Assembly (NCBI GenBank): GCA_007134675.1
Contig: SLKJ01000001.1
Span: 1 to 60,931 of the forward strand
Reading direction: 5' to 3'
Length of the DNA: 60,931 bases
From: Bacteroidales bacterium
GTDB lineage: Bacteria > Bacteroidota > Bacteroidia > Bacteroidales > PUMT01
Position 1 is the stretch's first letter, and each line of letters begins with the position of its first letter. Both the position numbers and the translations under genes were made by a program. The notes beneath the pieces were generated by a model. It was not told the DNA's origin, searched no databases, and was given only the letters and a program-made list of their open reading frames with translations. Below, in pieces: positions 9,341-20,215 of this stretch.

Positions 9341-10360
9341 ATGAATAAAAATTGCAGTATGGAGAATAAATATTCAAGACGTGATTTTATCCAGACTTTG
9401 ATGGCCGGAGTTCTGATGTTCCCGGTTGAAAATCAGACGACCAGCAATGGTCTTATACCATTGCGGCCGTTGGGGAAGACCGGCGAGAAGGTATCTATGA
9501 TCGGTTTTGGAGGATGGGACCTTGGGTTTATTGATGAAAAGCTTGCCATACGGATGATCCATCAGGGGGTTGACGCTGGAATTACCTTTATCGACAATGC
9601 CTGGGAATATCACAATGGACGTTCGGAAGAGGTAGTTGGAAAGGCTGTGGCAATGGGCAGGATGCGTGATAAGGTATTTTTGATGAGCAAGGTTTGTGCC
9701 CGTGATTACCAGGGTGCAAAACGTCACCTGGAAGATGGTTTACGACGATTAAAAACTGATCGTATTGATCTTGTTATGTTGCACTCTATCCAATATGATG
9801 GCGACGGTGAACGTGTATCTGATCCGGAAAACGGGGCCGTAAAAGCCCTGGTGGAAGCCAGAAAAGAAGGTAAACTCAAGTATATAGGTTTTTCAGGTCA
9901 CCGTGATCCGGAGATCCATCTTGAAATGTTAAATATGCCTGTTGAATGGGACTCCATGCTGCTGCCCTTAAATATTATGGATGCACATTATAACAGTTTT
10001 CAAAAAAAAGTGTTGCCAATCCTGCTTGATCGCCAGATAGCTCCATTGGGTATGAAATCACTGGTTGGTCGGTTCAACCGAATAACTGAAAGGATCAATG
10101 TTTCGGCAGAGCTTTGTCGCTGGTATGTCATGTCACTTCCGGTGAGTACCCTGGTTTGCGGATGGCAGAATATAAATCAAATGCAGCTTTGCATAGATAT
10201 TGCGCGTGATTTTAAACCTCTCACCAGTAGCAAAATTGAAGAGCTGCTTGATTTATCAGAAACTCCCGGATCTGACGGGGCATCCGAGTATTATAAAGAC
10301 GGTAACCGTGGTTATGGTTGTTCCTACCATGCAGGAATTTTGAGGGAGCAACAGGGTTAG
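9341..10360 (+). CDS. Aldo/keto reductase with twin-arginine-like N-terminus
   Basis: SRRDFI motif; RPLGKTGEKVSMIGFG, IDNAWEY, MSK, LRRLKTDRIDLVMLH (D-Y-K-H tetrad). Alternative start at 9359. Confidence 0.88.
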   Translation: MNKNCSMENKYSRRDFIQTLMAGVLMFPVENQTTSNGLIPLRPLGKTGEKVSMIGFGGWDLGFIDEKLAIRMIHQGVDAGITFIDNAWEYHNGRSEEVVGKAVAMGRMRDKVFLMSKVCARDYQGAKRHLEDGLRRLKTDRIDLVMLHSIQYDGDGERVSDPENGAVKALVEARKEGKLKYIGFSGHRDPEIHLEMLNMPVEWDSMLLPLNIMDAHYNSFQKKVLPILLDRQIAPLGMKSLVGRFNRITERINVSAELCRWYVMSLPVSTLVCGWQNINQMQLCIDIARDFKPLTSSKIEELLDLSETPGSDGASEYYKDGNRGYGCSYHAGILREQQG

Positions 10361-10445: not shown

Positions 10446-11732
10446 TTATTCTCTTACTTCCCTGTAGATACCAACCAGTTTCGCGGACTGGGTGTTGATA
10501 TTGAACTTTTCCTCGACTCCCTCTCGTGCTTTCCGGCTCATCTCCTCAAGCACCTTTTTATTGCCGAGTACTTTTTCCAGTGCTGCAGCCAGCTTCAGCG
10601 GGGTATTTTCTCCACATAATAATCCTCCTCCGCCTGGTTCAATTATTTCAGGGAAAGCTCCCAGTGAGGGTTGTACAGCCGGTATACCGCTGGCCATGGC
10701 TTCTGTCAGGTAAATACCGAAGGCCTCACCGTTACGTACCGGTACCGACAGAACTGATACGCGTTCGAAGAAAATATGCCTGTGCTCATTATCAAAGTTC
10801 TCCAGAAATATAACGTCCTTATCAACTCCGGCATCTGCGATCTTCTGTTTCTGCTGCCTGATAAAAGTGTTATCGTCGCCGGTACTTCCACCACTGACGT
10901 ATAGCTTCAGGTCGTGGTTTTTGGCATCGGACTTAAGTAAGATAAAGGCATCTACCAGTATGTCAAGTCCGTTAGCCTCACACATTCGTGACAGGAACCC
11001 TATTGAGCGTGCTTTCCCGCCGGAATTTATATATTTATAATCGTCAGGATCGACTCCAAGATGAAGTGTATGAACCTTTTTGTCTTCAAGATTCATCTTC
11101 TCTTTCATAAACCGCGTAAAGTAATGGCTGACTGATACAAATGCAGCAATATCCCTGGCTTTTTCACTCATCAGTTTCCATACTGCTTCGCGGCTTGTCT
11201 CAGACATTATATCAACCCATACATCCTCATCCTGAAGCGAGCATACCACCGGTACGCCGAGTCGGCTGTTAAGCCTTCCTGCAAGTCCCAGAAGCAGAGC
11301 ATTTGAAAGGTGAATAACATCGGGCTTGTAGTTCTTTTCAAGCCAGTGCACCATTTTTTCAAGTTCATCAGCCTGCTTGCCGTGCTCACCCAGCAGCATC
11401 GATATGGTCATATCCTCCAGACCCTTTGCCCGGGTTGATCCTGCCATTTTAGCTGCCTGTTTCAGCACAGGCGTGGTATTCAGCATATTGTCAAACCACT
11501 TTGGTGCTTTCTTAAAAAGAGGGTAGGTTTGCTTAAGGTAGAGGTTTACTGCTCCGTAAAATACCGGCACGTGGTCGTTGTCTTTATCATGGCTGAACAG
11601 GGGCAGGTACATTGGGATCTTCAGAACATCATGCCCAAGTGTTTTTATTGAGCTGTAATATTTACTGTCGCGCAGGCAGTTGCCACAGTAAAAGCTTCCT
11701 CCCGAACCAGGTATGATATGGACTATCTTCAT
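10446..11732 (-). CDS. Glycosyltransferase family 4 (GT-B) with N-terminal CxxC
   Basis: PDVIHLSN, EAFGIYLTEAMASGIP (EX7E), GAFPEII; N-terminal GSGGSFYCGNCLRD. Confidence 0.88.
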   Translation of the reverse strand: MKIVHIIPGSGGSFYCGNCLRDSKYYSSIKTLGHDVLKIPMYLPLFSHDKDNDHVPVFYGAVNLYLKQTYPLFKKAPKWFDNMLNTTPVLKQAAKMAGSTRAKGLEDMTISMLLGEHGKQADELEKMVHWLEKNYKPDVIHLSNALLLGLAGRLNSRLGVPVVCSLQDEDVWVDIMSETSREAVWKLMSEKARDIAAFVSVSHYFTRFMKEKMNLEDKKVHTLHLGVDPDDYKYINSGGKARSIGFLSRMCEANGLDILVDAFILLKSDAKNHDLKLYVSGGSTGDDNTFIRQQKQKIADAGVDKDVIFLENFDNEHRHIFFERVSVLSVPVRNGEAFGIYLTEAMASGIPAVQPSLGAFPEIIEPGGGGLLCGENTPLKLAAALEKVLGNKKVLEEMSRKAREGVEEKFNINTQSAKLVGIYREVRE

Positions 11733-11834: not shown

Positions 11835-12986
11835 TCAGTTCCCAAGGCACCAAACTGTTCCGTCGTTGGTGCCCAATACGATTCTGTTGCCCGATATTGC
11901 AGGACTCCCCGATACCGCGCTACCCGTCTCGAACATCCACAGCCTCCTGCCTGTATTGATATCGAGCAGCAAAATGTCGCCCCTCATATTGGCTACAAGC
12001 ACCTGCCTGCCGTCTGTAACCGCCGACGATTCGACCCTGCTGCCCGTGTTTGTTTTCCATTGAACCTCTCCCGTCTTTTTATCAAGGCTGTAGACAAACC
12101 TGTCCCTGTTCCCGATGATGATTCTGTTGCCATAGATTGCAGGGGATGCGACGAATGGAAGCTGCCTCTCCTCATCAGTCCACCGCCAGAGGATATTACC
12201 CCCGAGATAATTGACTGCGGTCAAGGTCCCGTCATAGTCGCCTATATAGGCAATCTCTTCATCCAAAGCCGGTGATCCGGCCACGTAGCTGGCTATCTCA
12301 ATTTCGGGAAGTGCGTCACCCCTTTGCAGGTCAACCCTGTGCAGGTAGCCGTCGCAACCGCCAAACACCGCCAGGTCACTCTCAATTGCCACGGCTGAGT
12401 GGAGGTAGTTGTACAGCTCATATTTCCATAAACCTTCGCCGGAATCGGCATCTATGGCGTGAAGGTAATAGTCATAGCTGCCCACCAGCAGGATATCTCT
12501 TTTGCCGTCTGACCAGATGTTGGGGGCAGCCGATACCTGGTTATCGCAATCGTATTGCCATATCAGCCTTCCGCTGCTCAGGTCAAGGCAGAAGATGGTG
12601 CCCTGAAGATTGCCGATGTACACCCTGTTATTATGGATCAGGGCAGGTGCCTCGATGGTGTTGCCGGTTTCGTACTGCCAGATCAGTTTGCCATCCATGC
12701 TGAGGCAATAGACAATACCGTCTCCCGATCCTATGACAATCCTCGAGTTGTAAATAACCGGAGAGGACTTAAGGTCGAATCCGGCTTCGAAAGTCCACAA
12801 TACTTCCGGATTTGCCGGGATCTGGTTCACTGTCTTGCCCGTAAGTTGTGCATTGCCCCTGTAATTTTTCCAGTCGCCTCCGTCAGGCCGGGCCTGCAGC
12901 GGGGTAACAGCCGTGATTATGACTAAAACAATAGCAGTCATTACCGGATCATATCGTTGGCGGAACTTGCTTAAATGGTTATTCAT
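11835..12986 (-). CDS. Exported PQQ-binding-like beta-propeller protein
   Basis: Signal peptide, WKNYRGN, repeated SSPVI...G.DG.VYCL...G.LIWQY tryptophan-docking blades. Confidence 0.88.
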   Translation of the reverse strand: MNNHLSKFRQRYDPVMTAIVLVIITAVTPLQARPDGGDWKNYRGNAQLTGKTVNQIPANPEVLWTFEAGFDLKSSPVIYNSRIVIGSGDGIVYCLSMDGKLIWQYETGNTIEAPALIHNNRVYIGNLQGTIFCLDLSSGRLIWQYDCDNQVSAAPNIWSDGKRDILLVGSYDYYLHAIDADSGEGLWKYELYNYLHSAVAIESDLAVFGGCDGYLHRVDLQRGDALPEIEIASYVAGSPALDEEIAYIGDYDGTLTAVNYLGGNILWRWTDEERQLPFVASPAIYGNRIIIGNRDRFVYSLDKKTGEVQWKTNTGSRVESSAVTDGRQVLVANMRGDILLLDINTGRRLWMFETGSAVSGSPAISGNRIVLGTNDGTVWCLGN

Positions 12987-13017: not shown

Positions 13018-14625
13018 TTAATCTTTTGTTCGCTGAGTTAACTCATAATGATCATCATCAGTCCGGCTGATCCCGTTTTCGCCCTCCCTGAGTGCGATTG
13101 CCCCGGTTGGACAGGCTCCCGCCAGTATGGAGCCGGTTTTTTTAATGGCATCTTTGATGTTTTCATCAAAGGGCACTGCAATCTCTACATCGTATCCTCT
13201 TCCCATGTATGTTAATCCTGGCCTTTCGTGATATTTTGCGGCAAGCCTCACGCAGATTCCGCACCTGATACATTTACCCGGTTCAATGACAACAATGTCA
13301 TGATCAATTGTCTTTTTGACTGCTTTTCTCTCCTCGAGGCTGAACCTTCTCTGTGATGCCGCGTACCTCTGTGCCAATTTTCTCAGTATGCATCCTGACG
13401 GCTTCAGACATTCGCAGTGCATGCAGCGCAACGCTTCGCGTGCCGCTTTGCCTGCATCAAAACTCCCTCCGGATTTTACGTTGGGTTCAATCCTCTGTTC
13501 AGAGGAGACACCGTTCATATAGGCCGGGAACTCACCTTCACGAAGACGGCCGATTCGCGAATTGAACTGTTTGGTCTCACCTGAGGGACTTGAACCGCCA
13601 AGCAGCTTCTCAATGCTGAAAGCCACCTCCTTGCCCTGGGCAGCCGACCTGATGGCAAGTCTGGTGCTGCGGTTGACATTGCCCACGGCAAAAACATCAG
13701 GTATACTGGTCAGGTAGCTATCCTTATCGACAGTCACCTGTTTGCCATTGTTTGCAAGTCCCCACTTACCAACCTCCTCTGTAAAATTACCTGTGGCAAC
13801 CACCACCGCATCGTAATCCTTCACTATCTTTTCAAACCGGGCCCTGTTTACTTTGGTGCCCGGATGGTATTCAACGCCTGAATCCAGTATAAAACCGGTC
13901 TCCCGATCAAGCACCTCCCTGTCGAGGGTCTTTTCGTCGATTTCATACCTCAGGGCGCCACCCGGCAGAGGGTTGCTGTCGAACAGGGTACAGGAAAATC
14001 CTTTTACCTGAAGGTACCATACTGCCGAAAGCCCTGCGATTCCCGCCCCGATGACGGCAACCCTGCCCTCTTTTGGAGGTGCCTGCTTTACCTCTAAATT
14101 TCCTTCATCACCCGCGAAACGTTTGAGGAGGCATATTGATACCGGCTGGTCAACACCCTTGCGGTGACATGCTCCTTCGCAGGGGGTGGGGCATATCCTG
14201 CCGAGCACCGATGGCATTGCAATATCTTTCATTACCGTTTCAAGGGCTTTGTCTGCATTACCCTCTGCAATAAAACGGTTCATAAGGGGGATATCCATGT
14301 TCGCAGGGCAGGCAATCCGGCACGGTGCTTCGCAGTCGCCGACATGCTCTGACAGAAGAAGCTCGATTGCGGTCTTTCTTGCCAGCTCTATCTCTTCGCT
14401 GTCTGTTGTTATATCCATGCCCTCAGCAGCAAAAACAGAGCAGGAAGGGATGAGCGAAGAGGAGCTTTTATCTTTTACCACGCATACCATACATGAGGCA
14501 AAATGTCCTGCATCGCTGTTGTAGCACATCGCTGGTATTTCAATGCCCTCACGAGCTGCCGCTTCATACACCGTCATCCCTTTAGTTGCCGTAACTTCGC
14601 GGTTGTTTATCCTGAGTCTGACCAT
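13018..14625 (-). CDS. Fe-S flavoprotein, BfuA/NuoG-GltD hybrid (2Fe-2S, His-ligated cluster, GltD-type clusters, FAD domain, C-terminal 4Fe-4S), no catalytic domain
   Basis: IPAMC...ASCMVCVV...SC [2Fe-2S]; SEHVGDCEAPCRIACP; GRICPTPCEGAC; VAVIGAGIAG; RCMHCECLKPSGCIL; KCIRCGIC...ACPTGA. Confidence 0.82.
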   Translation of the reverse strand: MVRLRINNREVTATKGMTVYEAAAREGIEIPAMCYNSDAGHFASCMVCVVKDKSSSSLIPSCSVFAAEGMDITTDSEEIELARKTAIELLLSEHVGDCEAPCRIACPANMDIPLMNRFIAEGNADKALETVMKDIAMPSVLGRICPTPCEGACHRKGVDQPVSICLLKRFAGDEGNLEVKQAPPKEGRVAVIGAGIAGLSAVWYLQVKGFSCTLFDSNPLPGGALRYEIDEKTLDREVLDRETGFILDSGVEYHPGTKVNRARFEKIVKDYDAVVVATGNFTEEVGKWGLANNGKQVTVDKDSYLTSIPDVFAVGNVNRSTRLAIRSAAQGKEVAFSIEKLLGGSSPSGETKQFNSRIGRLREGEFPAYMNGVSSEQRIEPNVKSGGSFDAGKAAREALRCMHCECLKPSGCILRKLAQRYAASQRRFSLEERKAVKKTIDHDIVVIEPGKCIRCGICVRLAAKYHERPGLTYMGRGYDVEIAVPFDENIKDAIKKTGSILAGACPTGAIALREGENGISRTDDDHYELTQRTKD

Positions 14626-17021: not shown

Positions 17022-18878
17022 TCAATTACCTATGCAGTAAAGATAGTCCTCCCCCCTGATGTAAATTCTGCCATCGGCAAAGGCCGGGGTTGTATAAACC
17101 TCCTCGCCGAGAGAGTTCTTTACCAGAAGGTTCGGTTCTCCTCCTGTTTCAAATATGTATGTGTTACCACTGATATCGGTAACATAGAGCCTGTTGCCTG
17201 CAACCACGGGTGACGAATAGAAAATGTCATCGGCATCGTACTCCCAGAGCTGCTCGCCTGTCTTTGCATCCATGCAGGCAAGCACCGCATAGGTTGTTGC
17301 GATGAAAACATATCCGTTACCATAAACGGGACTTGCCACCTCAGGCAGGTAGAAGTTATCTTCCCACACTACAGTTCCCGTTTCCGGGTTGATGGCGGCC
17401 ATGGTGGCATATTCGTTGGCCGCGAAAACAAATCCCCCGCCAAATGCCGGAGAAGGCCCGACCTCGCCTGCCATGGCGCTTACCGACCACAGCTCCCTTC
17501 CTGTTTCAATGTCGTACCCTGCCACTATGGGGTTTCCTTTGGCCACGAGCTGATAACTGCCGTTCACGTTGGCCAGTATAGGGGAGGCCCATGAGACATT
17601 TGATTCCCTTTTTATGTCCCAGATGGTCTCGCCTGTCAGGACGTTGAGGGATAGTATCCTGCCCTGGTCAAGATCGTCATACTGCACAAACAGTTTTTCA
17701 CCGTAAGAGATAAGTGATGAAGAGTGGCCGTAATGGTTATCGGGTACACCCAGATTCCTTGCCCACAGACGGTTTCCCTCCATGTCGAGCGCTATGATAT
17801 CGCCCGTACCGAATATCGCATATACGCCAATCCCGTCGGTGGTGGCAGACGGCGCACCCAGTCCGGTATCAGGCGTGGTTCTCGGTGGTGTTGCCGGCGA
17901 CCCGGGGATGTTATCGGCCGAAGCTTCCCAAAGGAGTTCGCCGGAATGTCTGTTGAAACAGAATACCTTTCTCTCACGGTCGTCGGCCCCGGTAAGGAAC
18001 AGCCTGTCGCCCCAGATTACAGGCGAACTGAAGGCGTGCAGGGGGACGGGCACTTTCCACAGAATGTTGGTGCCCGATTCTCCGTCCCATTCCATGGGCA
18101 GGTTTTCATGGAATACTACCCCGTTGCTCCAGGGTCCTCGTATTGCATTATGATTCTGCCTGATTGTGGTTGCACCGGGGAAGGAGGGTGCGGTGGGTGT
18201 GGCCGGAGCCAAGTCAGTCACGGGAGGGTCGGCAGGGGCCTCCTCCGGGTCTTCTTCTTTGGTTCCGGGTTCTTCGGTTTCAGGATCTTCGGGCGATGGG
18301 GCAGGGGTGGGCCTGGTATCAGTTGGCCTGGTATCGGGATCGGTTATTGTAATGCGTTCAACGTGGTCTCCAGACTCTGTGGGAGGGGGAAGATCGGACA
18401 GGTATCTTTCAAGAGGATCTGAAACGGTAAATGTTGCCAGCAGTGCAATTGCTATAAGTATACCGGTTCCTGCAAGTATCCATCGGCGTGAAAGTGCCCG
18501 ACTGGTAATGTCGTTGGTTTCTTCTTCCTTATCGGGTTTTTCAATTTTGTCAATAAGTGAATAGTAGATTCTGAGAGCGCCCACAAGGATAATGGCGGCA
18601 AAGAGCAGAAGCATGCCGCCTGTCCTGACCTGCCAGAGACTGGTAAAATAGGCCTTCCTTGCCAGCAGGTCAAACTGCCTGATCTCCTTTTTAAGCTGTT
18701 CGTTGCCGGGCTCCAACGCCAGCCTTTGCACAAGGGTTTCCATTACCTCACTATCCAGCGGGTCAGCTGATTGCATTTGCAGAAAGTTGAGAAGCAACAG
18801 CAGGCTTATCACAATGCAAAATGCACCTGCTACCGTAGCTGACTGTTTTGCAATTTTTATTTTGTCGCCGATGTTCAT
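17022..18878 (-). CDS. Membrane-anchored PQQ-binding-like beta-propeller with Pro/Glu-rich linker
   Basis: Three N-terminal hydrophobic helices, linker DPDTRPTDTRPTPAPSPEDPETEEP, then FSSPVIWGDRLF and YTTPAFADGRIYIR blades. Confidence 0.87.
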   Translation of the reverse strand: MNIGDKIKIAKQSATVAGAFCIVISLLLLLNFLQMQSADPLDSEVMETLVQRLALEPGNEQLKKEIRQFDLLARKAYFTSLWQVRTGGMLLLFAAIILVGALRIYYSLIDKIEKPDKEEETNDITSRALSRRWILAGTGILIAIALLATFTVSDPLERYLSDLPPPTESGDHVERITITDPDTRPTDTRPTPAPSPEDPETEEPGTKEEDPEEAPADPPVTDLAPATPTAPSFPGATTIRQNHNAIRGPWSNGVVFHENLPMEWDGESGTNILWKVPVPLHAFSSPVIWGDRLFLTGADDRERKVFCFNRHSGELLWEASADNIPGSPATPPRTTPDTGLGAPSATTDGIGVYAIFGTGDIIALDMEGNRLWARNLGVPDNHYGHSSSLISYGEKLFVQYDDLDQGRILSLNVLTGETIWDIKRESNVSWASPILANVNGSYQLVAKGNPIVAGYDIETGRELWSVSAMAGEVGPSPAFGGGFVFAANEYATMAAINPETGTVVWEDNFYLPEVASPVYGNGYVFIATTYAVLACMDAKTGEQLWEYDADDIFYSSPVVAGNRLYVTDISGNTYIFETGGEPNLLVKNSLGEEVYTTPAFADGRIYIRGEDYLYCIGN

Positions 18879-18946: not shown

Positions 18947-20215
18947 TCATTTCTGCACGGGGCAATACTTCATGCAGCGGCCGCAACTATAGCAGTCGCC
19001 TCTGTTCGGTTCATAATCGGTTCTCCTCCTCACTATATACTGGGAGATGAGGAACAACCCGGCCACCAGACCGATGAAAACCCCTGTAAACCATGCTCCT
19101 GTATAGAATGATGCCTGTATTTCACCTGCTGATTCAACCAGTTCGTCGATGGTCCGGTCTGATCCAAGAAAGGTCTGTACGTCCAGATTGTTGAGGTCAT
19201 CCATAACTTCCGGGTTATCGATAAGAAGGTGGGCAAGGTATACATCAGGATGGGCCTTTGCCAGGAATACATGTGAGGAGGAAAGTGCGAGTCCACCTAT
19301 CAGCATCAGCAGTGGTATAATTGCTGCATAGAGCATGAACCTGCCTGTACGGCCCTTTATATCATGTACGAGCTTGTCGGGTGTCGGTTTGTCAATGGCT
19401 CCGAAGGGACATGAATCAGTACAGAGTTTACACTGTATACACTGGTTCGGGGTAATCGAAAGGTGGCGCTTTGAGAATATGGACGTGACCTTCAGAAGCG
19501 CGCCGTAGGGACACACAAACCTGCAGTAGGGCCTTGCCACGAACATACCGGTCAGCAGGAAAGATATACCAAGGACTATAAGGTGGAATTCTGCACCCAT
19601 CCTGAAAATCCCTACGAAAGGATCATAGCGGCATATAATAAAGTCTGTGCCGGTGGCCGCGTAGAGCACTGCAAGTGCCAGGTAGACAAAAGGGAACATT
19701 CCAAGGGATTTCTGAATCCATACCGGAACACTGACAGGCCTGACTATCACAAGGTCCTGTATGGCACCAAGGGGACATGCAGAGCCACAAAAGACTCTGC
19801 CGAATGAAAGACTGAAGATAAGGGGAAGGATGAAGAATGCAATTACCGTATAGGAGACTGCATATGAGGGATCGGACAGTGACAGAACCATGTTTTGCGG
19901 TGAGCCGACCGGACAGATACAACCATTCCGCCAGAAGCCGAAATAGAGCAGTGCGCCGACTGACATCCAGAGGATCCATTGCCTGGAGCGTTTTTTTATC
20001 ACGACCCAGGAAGTTACCAGCAAAAAGAGGAGCAGCACGATCACATCACCATATTCAAGGGCAAGTGCCCTGGGCTCAGGAGTTATGACGTCGGGCAACT
20101 CATAGCCGGATTCAAATTCCGGGGCTGGGAAACGTTGCTGGGAAAAGGTTTCTTCAGGTATTGCTGTTGCCAGCAAAAACAGCAGGAGGGGTAATATGAT
20201 GGATGTAAGCTTCAA
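18947..20215 (-). CDS. Membrane 4Fe-4S protein, NapH/MauN-like
   Basis: Multiple TM helices; CICPVG, FCGSACPLG, YCRFVCPYG; ferredoxin motifs CIQCKLCTDSCP and CYSCGRCMKYCP. Confidence 0.85.
   Translation of the reverse strand: MKLTSIILPLLLFLLATAIPEETFSQQRFPAPEFESGYELPDVITPEPRALALEYGDVIVLLLFLLVTSWVVIKKRSRQWILWMSVGALLYFGFWRNGCICPVGSPQNMVLSLSDPSYAVSYTVIAFFILPLIFSLSFGRVFCGSACPLGAIQDLVIVRPVSVPVWIQKSLGMFPFVYLALAVLYAATGTDFIICRYDPFVGIFRMGAEFHLIVLGISFLLTGMFVARPYCRFVCPYGALLKVTSIFSKRHLSITPNQCIQCKLCTDSCPFGAIDKPTPDKLVHDIKGRTGRFMLYAAIIPLLMLIGGLALSSSHVFLAKAHPDVYLAHLLIDNPEVMDDLNNLDVQTFLGSDRTIDELVESAGEIQASFYTGAWFTGVFIGLVAGLFLISQYIVRRRTDYEPNRGDCYSCGRCMKYCPVQK

Follow-up and report, generated by a model that had tools for sequence, protein, structure and literature searches.

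What does a BfuA/NfnA-like iron-sulfur (Fe-S) flavoprotein do when its NADP(H) domain has been cut out and its flavin domain has stayed? The question is raised by a gene of a Bacteroidales bacterium (GenBank assembly GCA_007134675.1), located in the 60,931-nucleotide stretch of contig SLKJ01000001.1 that was analysed here (the window). The gene lies at 13018..14625 on the minus strand and encodes a protein of 535 amino acids (aa), hereafter P0001, which was delimited by its open reading frame (ORF) and identified through its Pfam, NCBIfam and solved-structure matches as a short BfuA/NfnA-like iron-sulfur flavoprotein. P0001 is without the NADP(H) Rossmann domain, 26 residues standing in place of about 170, and the short form to which it belongs is a large, diverse family under purifying selection, not a product of decay.

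The deletion can be located to the residue. YDAVVVATG occupies residues 271-279 and TSIPDVFAVGN residues 306-316 (nucleotides 13678-13815), and exactly 26 residues (280-305) lie between them. A motif search of P0001 found one G.G..[GA] motif, GAGIAG at residue 193, and no second, and the Pfam model Pyr_redox_2 matches residues 188-279 only, corresponding to profile positions 2-108 of 291. The initial annotation of this gene, made from the sequence alone, had described the 26-residue interval with its coordinates, the single GGGxxA/G-type motif and GN in place of the usual GD; all are borne out by the ORF translation and the motif search. The GN at residues 315-316 has an invariant N in 18/18 near relatives; across the wider family, the GD/GN column is variable in short and long forms alike.

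Along the chain, residues 1-80 (14386..14625, minus strand, like all features of P0001) form a NuoG/HydA-type [2Fe-2S] domain with cluster A1 (C34, C45, C48 and C62; Pfam Fer2_4 at 1-76), and residues 94-168 (14122..14346) form a GltD/NfnL-type domain for two [4Fe-4S] clusters, A6/A7 (Pfam Fer4_20 at 98-174), with H94, C98, C102, C106, C145, C149, C153, C165 and K168 as ligand candidates. The first part of the FAD Rossmann domain follows at residues 187-279 (13789..14067), where Pfam DAO, Pyr_redox_2 and NAD_binding_8 match and where G193xG195xxG198, D216, G222-G223 and D272...G279 are found. The deletion junction loop of 26 residues, 280-305 (13711..13788), is defined by the gap against solved chains and against the NfnA of the same genome. 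It leads to the return strand and helix of the FAD domain at residues 306-345 (13591..13710), in which VFAVGN316 is aligned to ...VFAxGD of 9bov_A, 8oh5_C, 9n5u_A and the own-genome NfnA. Cluster A2 has its site at residues 401-412 (13390..13425), with the motif C401xxC404xC406x5C412 aligned in the same three solved chains, and residues 445-510 (13096..13293) form a single-cluster ferredoxin-like domain with A3 (C452, C455, C458 and C505; Pfam Fer4_Nqo3), from which the A4 ligands are absent. The features that the initial annotation listed are correct; it overlooked the A1, A6/A7 and A2 sites, the fused BfuC-BfuB gene upstream and the canonical NfnABC paralogue.

The label BfuA/GltD-like, given initially, is supported by Pfam and by the solved NfnA/StnC relatives. 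Among the NCBIfam models, NF009454 (657 positions) fits best: residues 2-280 of P0001 align to its positions 4-288 with 357 bits, below the cut-off of 916. The GltD models TIGR01317 and TIGR01318 also remain below their cut-offs (120 bits vs 447.7 and 97 vs 483, respectively), and no GltB-like gene was found among the operon neighbours scanned with Pfam. P0001 shares the Fer4_20 two-cluster and FAD domains with GltD, NfnL (of NfnSL) and the N-terminal module of dihydropyrimidine dehydrogenase, whereas those proteins have a second Rossmann domain that binds NAD(P)H and have no NuoG-type [2Fe-2S] cluster, A2 or A3.

By sequence and by Foldseek, the nearest solved relatives are NfnA of Caldicellulosiruptor NfnABC (9bov_A), Sporomusa StnC (8oh5_C) and Thermococcus sibiricus NfnA (9n5u_A). 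Each of these chains aligns in two blocks, to residues 1-282 and about 267-511 of P0001, and some 130-170 chain residues between the blocks are without a counterpart. The NADPH domain is the only internal gap in P0001 relative to solved NfnA/StnC, so that the comparison by alignment and structure prediction that the initial annotation had proposed confirms the gap against all three chains. The same genome carries a canonical operon on contig C146, with nfnC (176 aa), nfnB (592 aa) and nfnA (1238 aa); this NfnA has a complete Pyr_redox_2 match (198-504) and molybdopterin-type domains. In BLASTP, residues 2-280 of P0001 match 6-292 of the own-genome NfnA and residues 284-511 match 463-694, and the 170 NfnA residues skipped in between include the second dinucleotide motif, KKVAVVGGG. 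Because a full canonical nfnCBA is present in the same genome, the P0001 gene is a diverged paralogue and not a replacement.

Could the gap stem from damage in this one strain, from pseudogene formation or from faulty assembly? In that case, the relatives would be expected to keep the domain. The great majority do not, and we give this explanation next to no credence. A word-index search returned 2890 matches; among the best 120, which were inspected, 117 are 505-562 aa long, one is a fragment and two are fusions. When representatives clustered at 50% identity were searched exhaustively, 1176 proteins passed E<=1e-30, and most of the best 150 of these are 480-560 aa long and are matched in one stretch, at identities down to 34%. 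In a MAFFT alignment of 270 collected relatives, the G279-V311 interval measures at most 55 residues in 257 (short forms) and 156-209 residues in 13 (long forms). Synteny was sampled with one genome per species among 589 relatives, of which the best 80 loci were kept, and all synteny counts refer to loci with enough flank. Where both BfuA and the neighbouring NapH-like gene (see below) have complete ORFs, 52/52 loci encode a BfuA of 500-553 aa, which refutes a strain lesion or misassembly, the condition that the initial annotation had itself named. The reading frame is intact, and an RNA library yielded a contig that agrees with the window at every position of 13698-13898, a segment that includes the junction; this contig is an independent copy of the sequence, in which DNA carry-over is possible. 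This evidence comes from one metatranscriptome-library run whose short contigs are identical to parts of the operon, with strand and level not readable and uncovered stretches uninformative.

Members of the family currently bear database names such as "glutamate synthase small subunit," "ferredoxin" and "FAD-dependent oxidoreductase." Neither an NADPH-domain-less NfnA nor its operon turned up in a full-text literature search; the supplementary clade tables of PMC9304861 lay outside that search. In Schut et al. 2022, 17 BfuB clades are unassigned and Bacteroidetes are among the Nfn-type members (PMC9304861). One family member of 951 aa, P0146, has the short BfuA fused to a URO-D-like domain.

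Functional constraint was assessed site by site in an alignment of 150 representatives, 137 short and 13 long. The four A1 ligands are invariant in three separate family alignments. In the two-cluster domain, H94, C98 and C102 are each found in 134/137 short representatives (the remaining three have a gap), C106 in 133/137, C145 and C149 in 135/137, and C153 in 137/137. K168 is aligned with StnC K170, which is described as the Lys ligand of the FAD-adjacent cluster (PMC10482914); Lys occupies that column in only 72/137 short representatives. In the FAD domain, G193 is present in 137/137, G195 and G198 in 136/137, and an acidic residue (D/E) after strand 2, at position 216, in 131/137. The A2 ligands C401, C404, C406 and C412 are invariant in short (137/137) and long forms (13/13), and of the A3 ligands C452 and C458 are found in 137/137 and C455 and C505 in 136/137 short representatives, with all four in 13/13 long. 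The mean top-residue frequency among the 137 short forms is 0.52 in the FAD half-domain and 0.53-0.60 in the Fe-S domains, and 0.21 in the junction loop.

An AlphaFold2 (AF2) model of P0001 has a mean predicted local distance difference test score of 71, with the FAD domain above 90 and values of 84-97 over residues 181-320. Residues 346-395, with the motif FNSRxGxL, were considered as a new flavin lid and rejected, as the motif is partly present in long forms and AF2 confidence is low there. Judging from sequence, P0001 probably binds FAD. The initial proposal of streamlining and not decay thus agrees with the short form in 257/270 relatives and with the conserved ligands and FAD motifs, and the flavin arm is so strongly conserved that it is likely to be in use.

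The pattern of what was kept follows the electron path of the solved complexes. In NfnABC/Stn, the path is given as FAD-A7-A6-A3-A2-A1-B1, with A4 and A5 off the path (PMC11829005, PMC12018979, PMC10482914). All ligand sets of A1, A2, A3 and A6/A7 are present in P0001, and the missing clusters are the off-path ones only. Compared with NfnA/StnC (9bov, 8oh5, 9n5u), P0001 thus has the same module order (A1, two-cluster domain, FAD fold, A2, A3), a Lys at the K170 position and an NfnB-like partner; it differs by being without the NADP(H) domain, by a Thr in place of R239, by being without the NuoG/Fdh-like C-terminal domain and A5, and by the fusion of BfuC to BfuB.

Could P0001 still be an NADPH-dependent Nfn, with NADPH bound in another way or with the domain supplied in trans? 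The NADPH pocket of StnC is formed by both Rossmann folds (PMC10482914), so P0001, with one fold, cannot bind NADPH in that way. The StnC variant R239A is reported to be nearly inactive, the Arg being required for NADPH turnover (PMC10482914). The corresponding residue of P0001 is T233 (R234 in Tsi), and this Arg column near the flavin holds R in 12/13 long vs 33/137 short representatives, so that the turnover Arg has been lost. As to supply in trans, a distant relative of 1133 aa, P0144, carries a short BfuA joined to a complete second GltD-like module that includes an NADPH domain and, at the C-terminus, a ferredoxin motif. On the other side, a search of the own genome (91% complete) with the NADPH domain of a long form found no stand-alone NADPH domain, matching only inside the 1238-aa canonical NfnA, and the conserved operon has no gene for such a domain. 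Continued use of NADPH is therefore very improbable in our view.

The C-terminal part has its own history. CIRCGIC and the final CPTGA are kept, the fourth Cys of ferredoxin motif 1 is replaced by Ala462, and CxxCxxC is absent from residues 490-504, just as had been annotated. The C-terminus lies 30 residues past C505, at residue 535, and Pfam gives no Molybdopterin or Molybdop_Fe4S4 match in P0001, domains of a kind that the own-genome NfnA has. P0001 is without the second ferredoxin cluster, A4, and without the Mo-PGD-like (NuoG/Fdh-like, A5) C-terminal domain. The initial annotation had placed the erased cluster next to the catalytic site by analogy with HydA. In Bfu nomenclature, it is indeed the cluster leading to the catalytic domain, A4 (PMC9304861, PMC12018979); its loss is not special to P0001, since A4 is absent in the 13 long forms and in Thermococcus NfnA. 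The fourth-Cys column holds A/T/S in 124/137 short and 12/13 long representatives, the 13th long form has E, and none of the 13 long forms has Cys there. The absence of the fourth Cys in all 13 long forms as well implies that the loss of A4 predates that of the NADPH domain. Thermococcus NfnA is likewise described as being without A4 (PMC12018979, PMC9304861), and its alignment shows the same missing Cys pattern as P0001, unlike Csac and Sov.

The long relatives of about 650 aa (NF009454/PRK12814-like, e.g., P0258, P0192 and L099) share the architecture of P0001 and are likewise without A4 and the Mo-PGD-like domain, and the short clade nests among them. They differ by an NADPH domain of 156-209 residues with GGGxxA, by the Arg in 12/13, and by a genomic context with NapGH-like proteins and beta-propellers in L099 only. 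Insert columns were removed before trees were built. In a quick IQ-TREE of 56 rows (the 13 long forms and every third eligible short form), a single starred group took in every long form and just one short form, P0193. When a 58-row tree was rooted with the own-genome NfnA and L099 was added, the long forms became a basal grade, and 42/43 sampled short forms fell into one starred clade (SH-aLRT 95), with one label change; not included in this tree are 86/129 short representatives that were eligible, together with 8 whose length falls outside 480-760 aa.

The genomic context of the short form suggests where its electrons go. P0001 is encoded in an operon of 11 genes on the minus strand, from 26223 to 10446. 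In transcription order, the first three genes encode two exported PQQ_2-type propellers and an anchored propeller, and the fourth an NHL-like propeller; together these upstream exported propellers cover 21128..26223 (minus strand; NHL-like, 321 aa; PQQ_2-like, 478, 417 and 407 aa; Pfam). Then follow a NapG-like ferredoxin, a NapH-like protein, a three-transmembrane propeller, a NuoEF fusion, the short BfuA, an anchored propeller and a GT4 glycosyltransferase. The NapG-like ferredoxin (20316..20894, minus strand, 192 aa) has a twin-arginine (Tat) signal and 16 conserved Cys, its SRREF motif and four Cys motifs being conserved in 52 sequences. The NapH-like integral-membrane Fe-S protein (18947..20215, minus strand, 422 aa; Pfam Fer4_5, NCBIfam napH) has conserved CxxxCP and CxxCxxCxxxCP motifs and scores 41 bits with NCBIfam napH, where the cut-off is 213. 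The beta-propeller with three transmembrane segments (17022..18878, minus strand, 618 aa; ORF, Pfam) has a stop codon that overlaps the NuoEF start. Downstream of P0001 lie a beta-propeller with an N-terminal membrane anchor (11835..12986, minus strand, 383 aa; Pfam PQQ_2 and Beta-prop_ACSF4) and the GT4 glycosyltransferase (10446..11732, minus strand, 428 aa; Pfam), a conserved downstream neighbour.

The gene directly upstream of P0001 (14650..17025, minus strand, 791 aa; Pfam) encodes a fused NuoE-NuoF (BfuC-BfuB). As is typical of BfuB, it carries an additional [2Fe-2S] domain at the N-terminus and a 2x[4Fe-4S] domain at the C-terminus, and its closest solved relatives are the NfnB chains 9bov_B (711 bits), 9n5u_B (aligned over 185-790) and 8oh5_B. 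By its domain content, which also covers the FMN/NADH site of BfuB and the [2Fe-2S] domain of BfuC, the fusion has the makeup of a BfuBC core of the Bfu family.

This arrangement is widely conserved. The best 80 loci, kept from the 589 relatives, are mostly from Bacteroidota and also include Planctomycetota, a PVC-group genome, Aminicenantes and KSB1, and close homologues occur in the cultured carriers Draconibacterium sp. (L018) and Maribellus maritimus (P0091). The NuoEF fusion is directly upstream of the short BfuA in 66/72 loci, the NapH-like gene is upstream in 52/57 and the NapG-like gene likewise in 52/57. Downstream, the anchored propeller is present in 58/68 loci, plus three with overlapping starts, and the GT4 glycosyltransferase in 51/63, including a KSB1 genome. 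In three separate protein clusters (P0023, P0025 and P0177), the short BfuA is fused to the anchored propeller through a hydrophobic anchor, which fits a BfuA at the cytoplasmic face of the membrane with the propeller outside.

Several further observations were made on these loci. In a Mariniphaga genome, the short BfuA, propeller and glycosyltransferase genes (L013:2740-9804) stand after haem-biosynthesis genes (HemN-like, protoporphyrinogen-oxidase-like and ferrochelatase), with the NuoEF fusion on a different contig, at its very edge (G002:C358:188-2503), so the operon can be split. The NHL-like propeller (21128-22093, minus strand) has a vicinal Cys pair, C245-C246 in GFxGCCNP, in at least 95% of 45 sequences, which could form a redox-active vicinal disulfide. 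A conserved His-rich motif that could serve as a shared active or metal site recurs in two anchored propellers: in the 618-aa protein (17022-18878, minus strand) it reads NHYGHSS (381-388), and in the 478-aa protein (22096-23532, minus strand) RNHGxSRT (162-169). Just beyond the glycosyltransferase gene and pointing toward it, an aldo/keto reductase with a twin-arginine-like signal (SRRDFIQTLMAG) is encoded at 9341-10360 on the plus strand; it is not conserved with the operon, with a weak 29% match in 1/80 loci.

We consider it probable that P0001 is the non-NADPH electron-transfer arm of a second Nfn/Stn-derived Bfu-type complex with the fused BfuC-BfuB, and that the NapH-like protein is its most likely partner. 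The NADP(H) domain would have been cut from a "mini-NfnA" of about 650 aa that was already without A4 and the Mo-PGD-like domain, in an old and probably single event. The wire FAD-A7-A6-A3-A2-A1 would have been retained complete, leading to the flavin and Fe-S core of BfuB. P0001 would then couple the chemistry of NADH (and probably also ferredoxin) at the BfuBC core to a partner other than a pyridine nucleotide, the next carrier being presumably the NapH-like membrane protein, then the Tat-exported NapG-like ferredoxin and then the exported beta-propellers. Like the NapGH quinol dehydrogenase and NosR-type systems, the operon combines a CxxxCP membrane protein carrying two ferredoxin motifs with a Tat-exported poly-ferredoxin; unlike them, its pair scores far below the family cut-offs and is joined to a cytoplasmic Bfu module. 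Neither NapAB, NapC nor NosZ is encoded near the operon.

The Bfu-type enzymes are classed by the "third substrate" site on BfuA. In type 2 and type 3 enzymes, as outlined by Schut et al. 2022 (PMC9304861), BfuA is without a third-substrate site of its own and is only a wire, and the operons have extra redox subunits, which resembles the situation of P0001; P0001 differs in keeping an NfnL-like flavin, and the extra subunits here are NapH/NapG-like Fe-S proteins and beta-propellers.

A more far-reaching form of this explanation, which is possible and which we put forward tentatively, envisages a haem-free transmembrane conduit with the short BfuA as its cytoplasmic plug. A bifurcating NADH/ferredoxin module that has been deprived of its NADPH site would, through the NapH/NapG-like proteins, exchange electrons of about -400 mV with exported propeller enzymes. 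No CxxCH haem motif was found in any operon protein.

Several points weigh against P0001 being a non-NADPH arm with the NapH-like protein as partner. We infer the identity of the partner from gene order only, and its docking site and the direction of electron flow are inferences too. An Fe-S partner would need no terminal flavin, yet the FAD domain is strongly conserved. Only 3/8 of the residues listed as FAD hydrogen-bonding in Thermococcus NfnA are identical in P0001, and the GD column varies. The NuoEF fusion is not adjacent in 6/72 loci; of the five such genomes that were searched, four have a NuoEF orthologue (61-70% identity) on another contig. The history of the deletion may also be less simple, because FastTree with all 142 eligible rows gave four long/short label changes, at least two of them forced by starred branches, and a single deletion event is thus not firmly established. 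We conclude that the deletion reflects one or a few old events. The last of these points is that the ancestral system may have used NADPH, and it comes from the long-form locus L099. Complex prediction for the short BfuA (1-515) with the NapH-like protein and FAD gave scores of 0.03 and 0.11, the mark being 0.32, and counts neither for nor against this partner.

L099 was found by scanning metagenome contigs with the 13 long forms. At L099:2630-11073, a long BfuA of 690 aa stands behind unfused NuoE and NuoF genes, and the genes upstream are NapH-like, NapG-like, NHL-like and a PQQ_2 propeller. The long form is intact, with GGGNTA, the Arg (LRYGIPAYRL) and GGD. This reduced version of the operon may represent the state before the deletion. 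Since L099 keeps its NADPH domain beside NapGH-like and propeller genes, the link to the membrane is independent of the deletion, and the partner need not dock on the vacated flavin face. Docking of the NapH-like protein at that face, as the initial annotation had suggested, is accordingly weakened. L099 is the only locus with a NapH-like gene among 11 full-length long-form loci having at least 6 kb of upstream flank, and a NuoF-like gene is upstream in 9/11 of them. The rooted tree puts L099 together with P0263 and P0258 within the basal grade, where it does not adjoin the short clade. P0183, P0192, P0251 and P0253, which among the long forms stand nearest to the short clade, reach no more than 38-43% identity with their best matches in the fetched loci.

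The same locus bears on another explanation, in which electrons enter or leave through A3/A2, on the face opened by the loss of A4, A5 and the Mo-PGD-like domain, and FAD-A7-A6 is a side arm serving as a redox buffer or left as a structural remnant. With an intact NADPH domain and the same NapG/NapH/propeller neighbours, L099 has a partner that cannot need the vacated face, and in type 2 and type 3 enzymes extra subunits are described as feeding BfuA through Fe-S clusters (PMC9304861, PMC12018979). A useless arm should decay, however, and the ligands and FAD motifs persist in 133-137/137 short representatives, down to 35% identity; moreover, L099 is one of 11 qualifying long-form loci and may be a secondary recombinant. 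We regard a mere side arm as rather improbable.

The main rival to an electron-transfer arm facing the NapH-like protein is that the FAD, now that it is uncovered, acts as a new active site on a small two-electron substrate (menaquinone at the membrane, a disulfide or polysulfide, or oxygen), with the NapGH-like proteins and propellers separate or loosely coupled. In its favour, one-electron Fe-S wires are usually coupled to two-electron substrates by a flavin, the FAD motifs occur in 136-137/137 short representatives, and the membrane-anchor fusions would put the flavin at the membrane. The junction loop is unconserved (0.21), so a new lid made by the protein is not evident. Against such a site, a recognisable substrate-binding element is absent, the Arg near the flavin is unconserved, and the tight linkage to the NapH- and NapG-like genes (52/57) argues for one system. 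A new small-substrate site is therefore unlikely, if somewhat less so than a mere side arm, and we retain the non-NADPH arm as the preferred explanation.

The family described here spans several phyla and has deleted the NADPH site of its ancestor but preserved the flavin and the entire Fe-S wire. It provides a concrete case of a soluble bifurcating transhydrogenase rebuilt into another function, for which the canonical NfnABC in the same genome serves as an internal control and the L099 long form as a natural "before" state. Genes that are automatically annotated as "glutamate synthase small subunit" and the like are flagged by this work as unlikely NADPH users. Should the tentative reading as a transmembrane conduit be true, anaerobic Bacteroidota, Planctomycetota and other phyla would possess a hitherto undescribed type of redox or energy-converting system that works at low potential in the periplasm.

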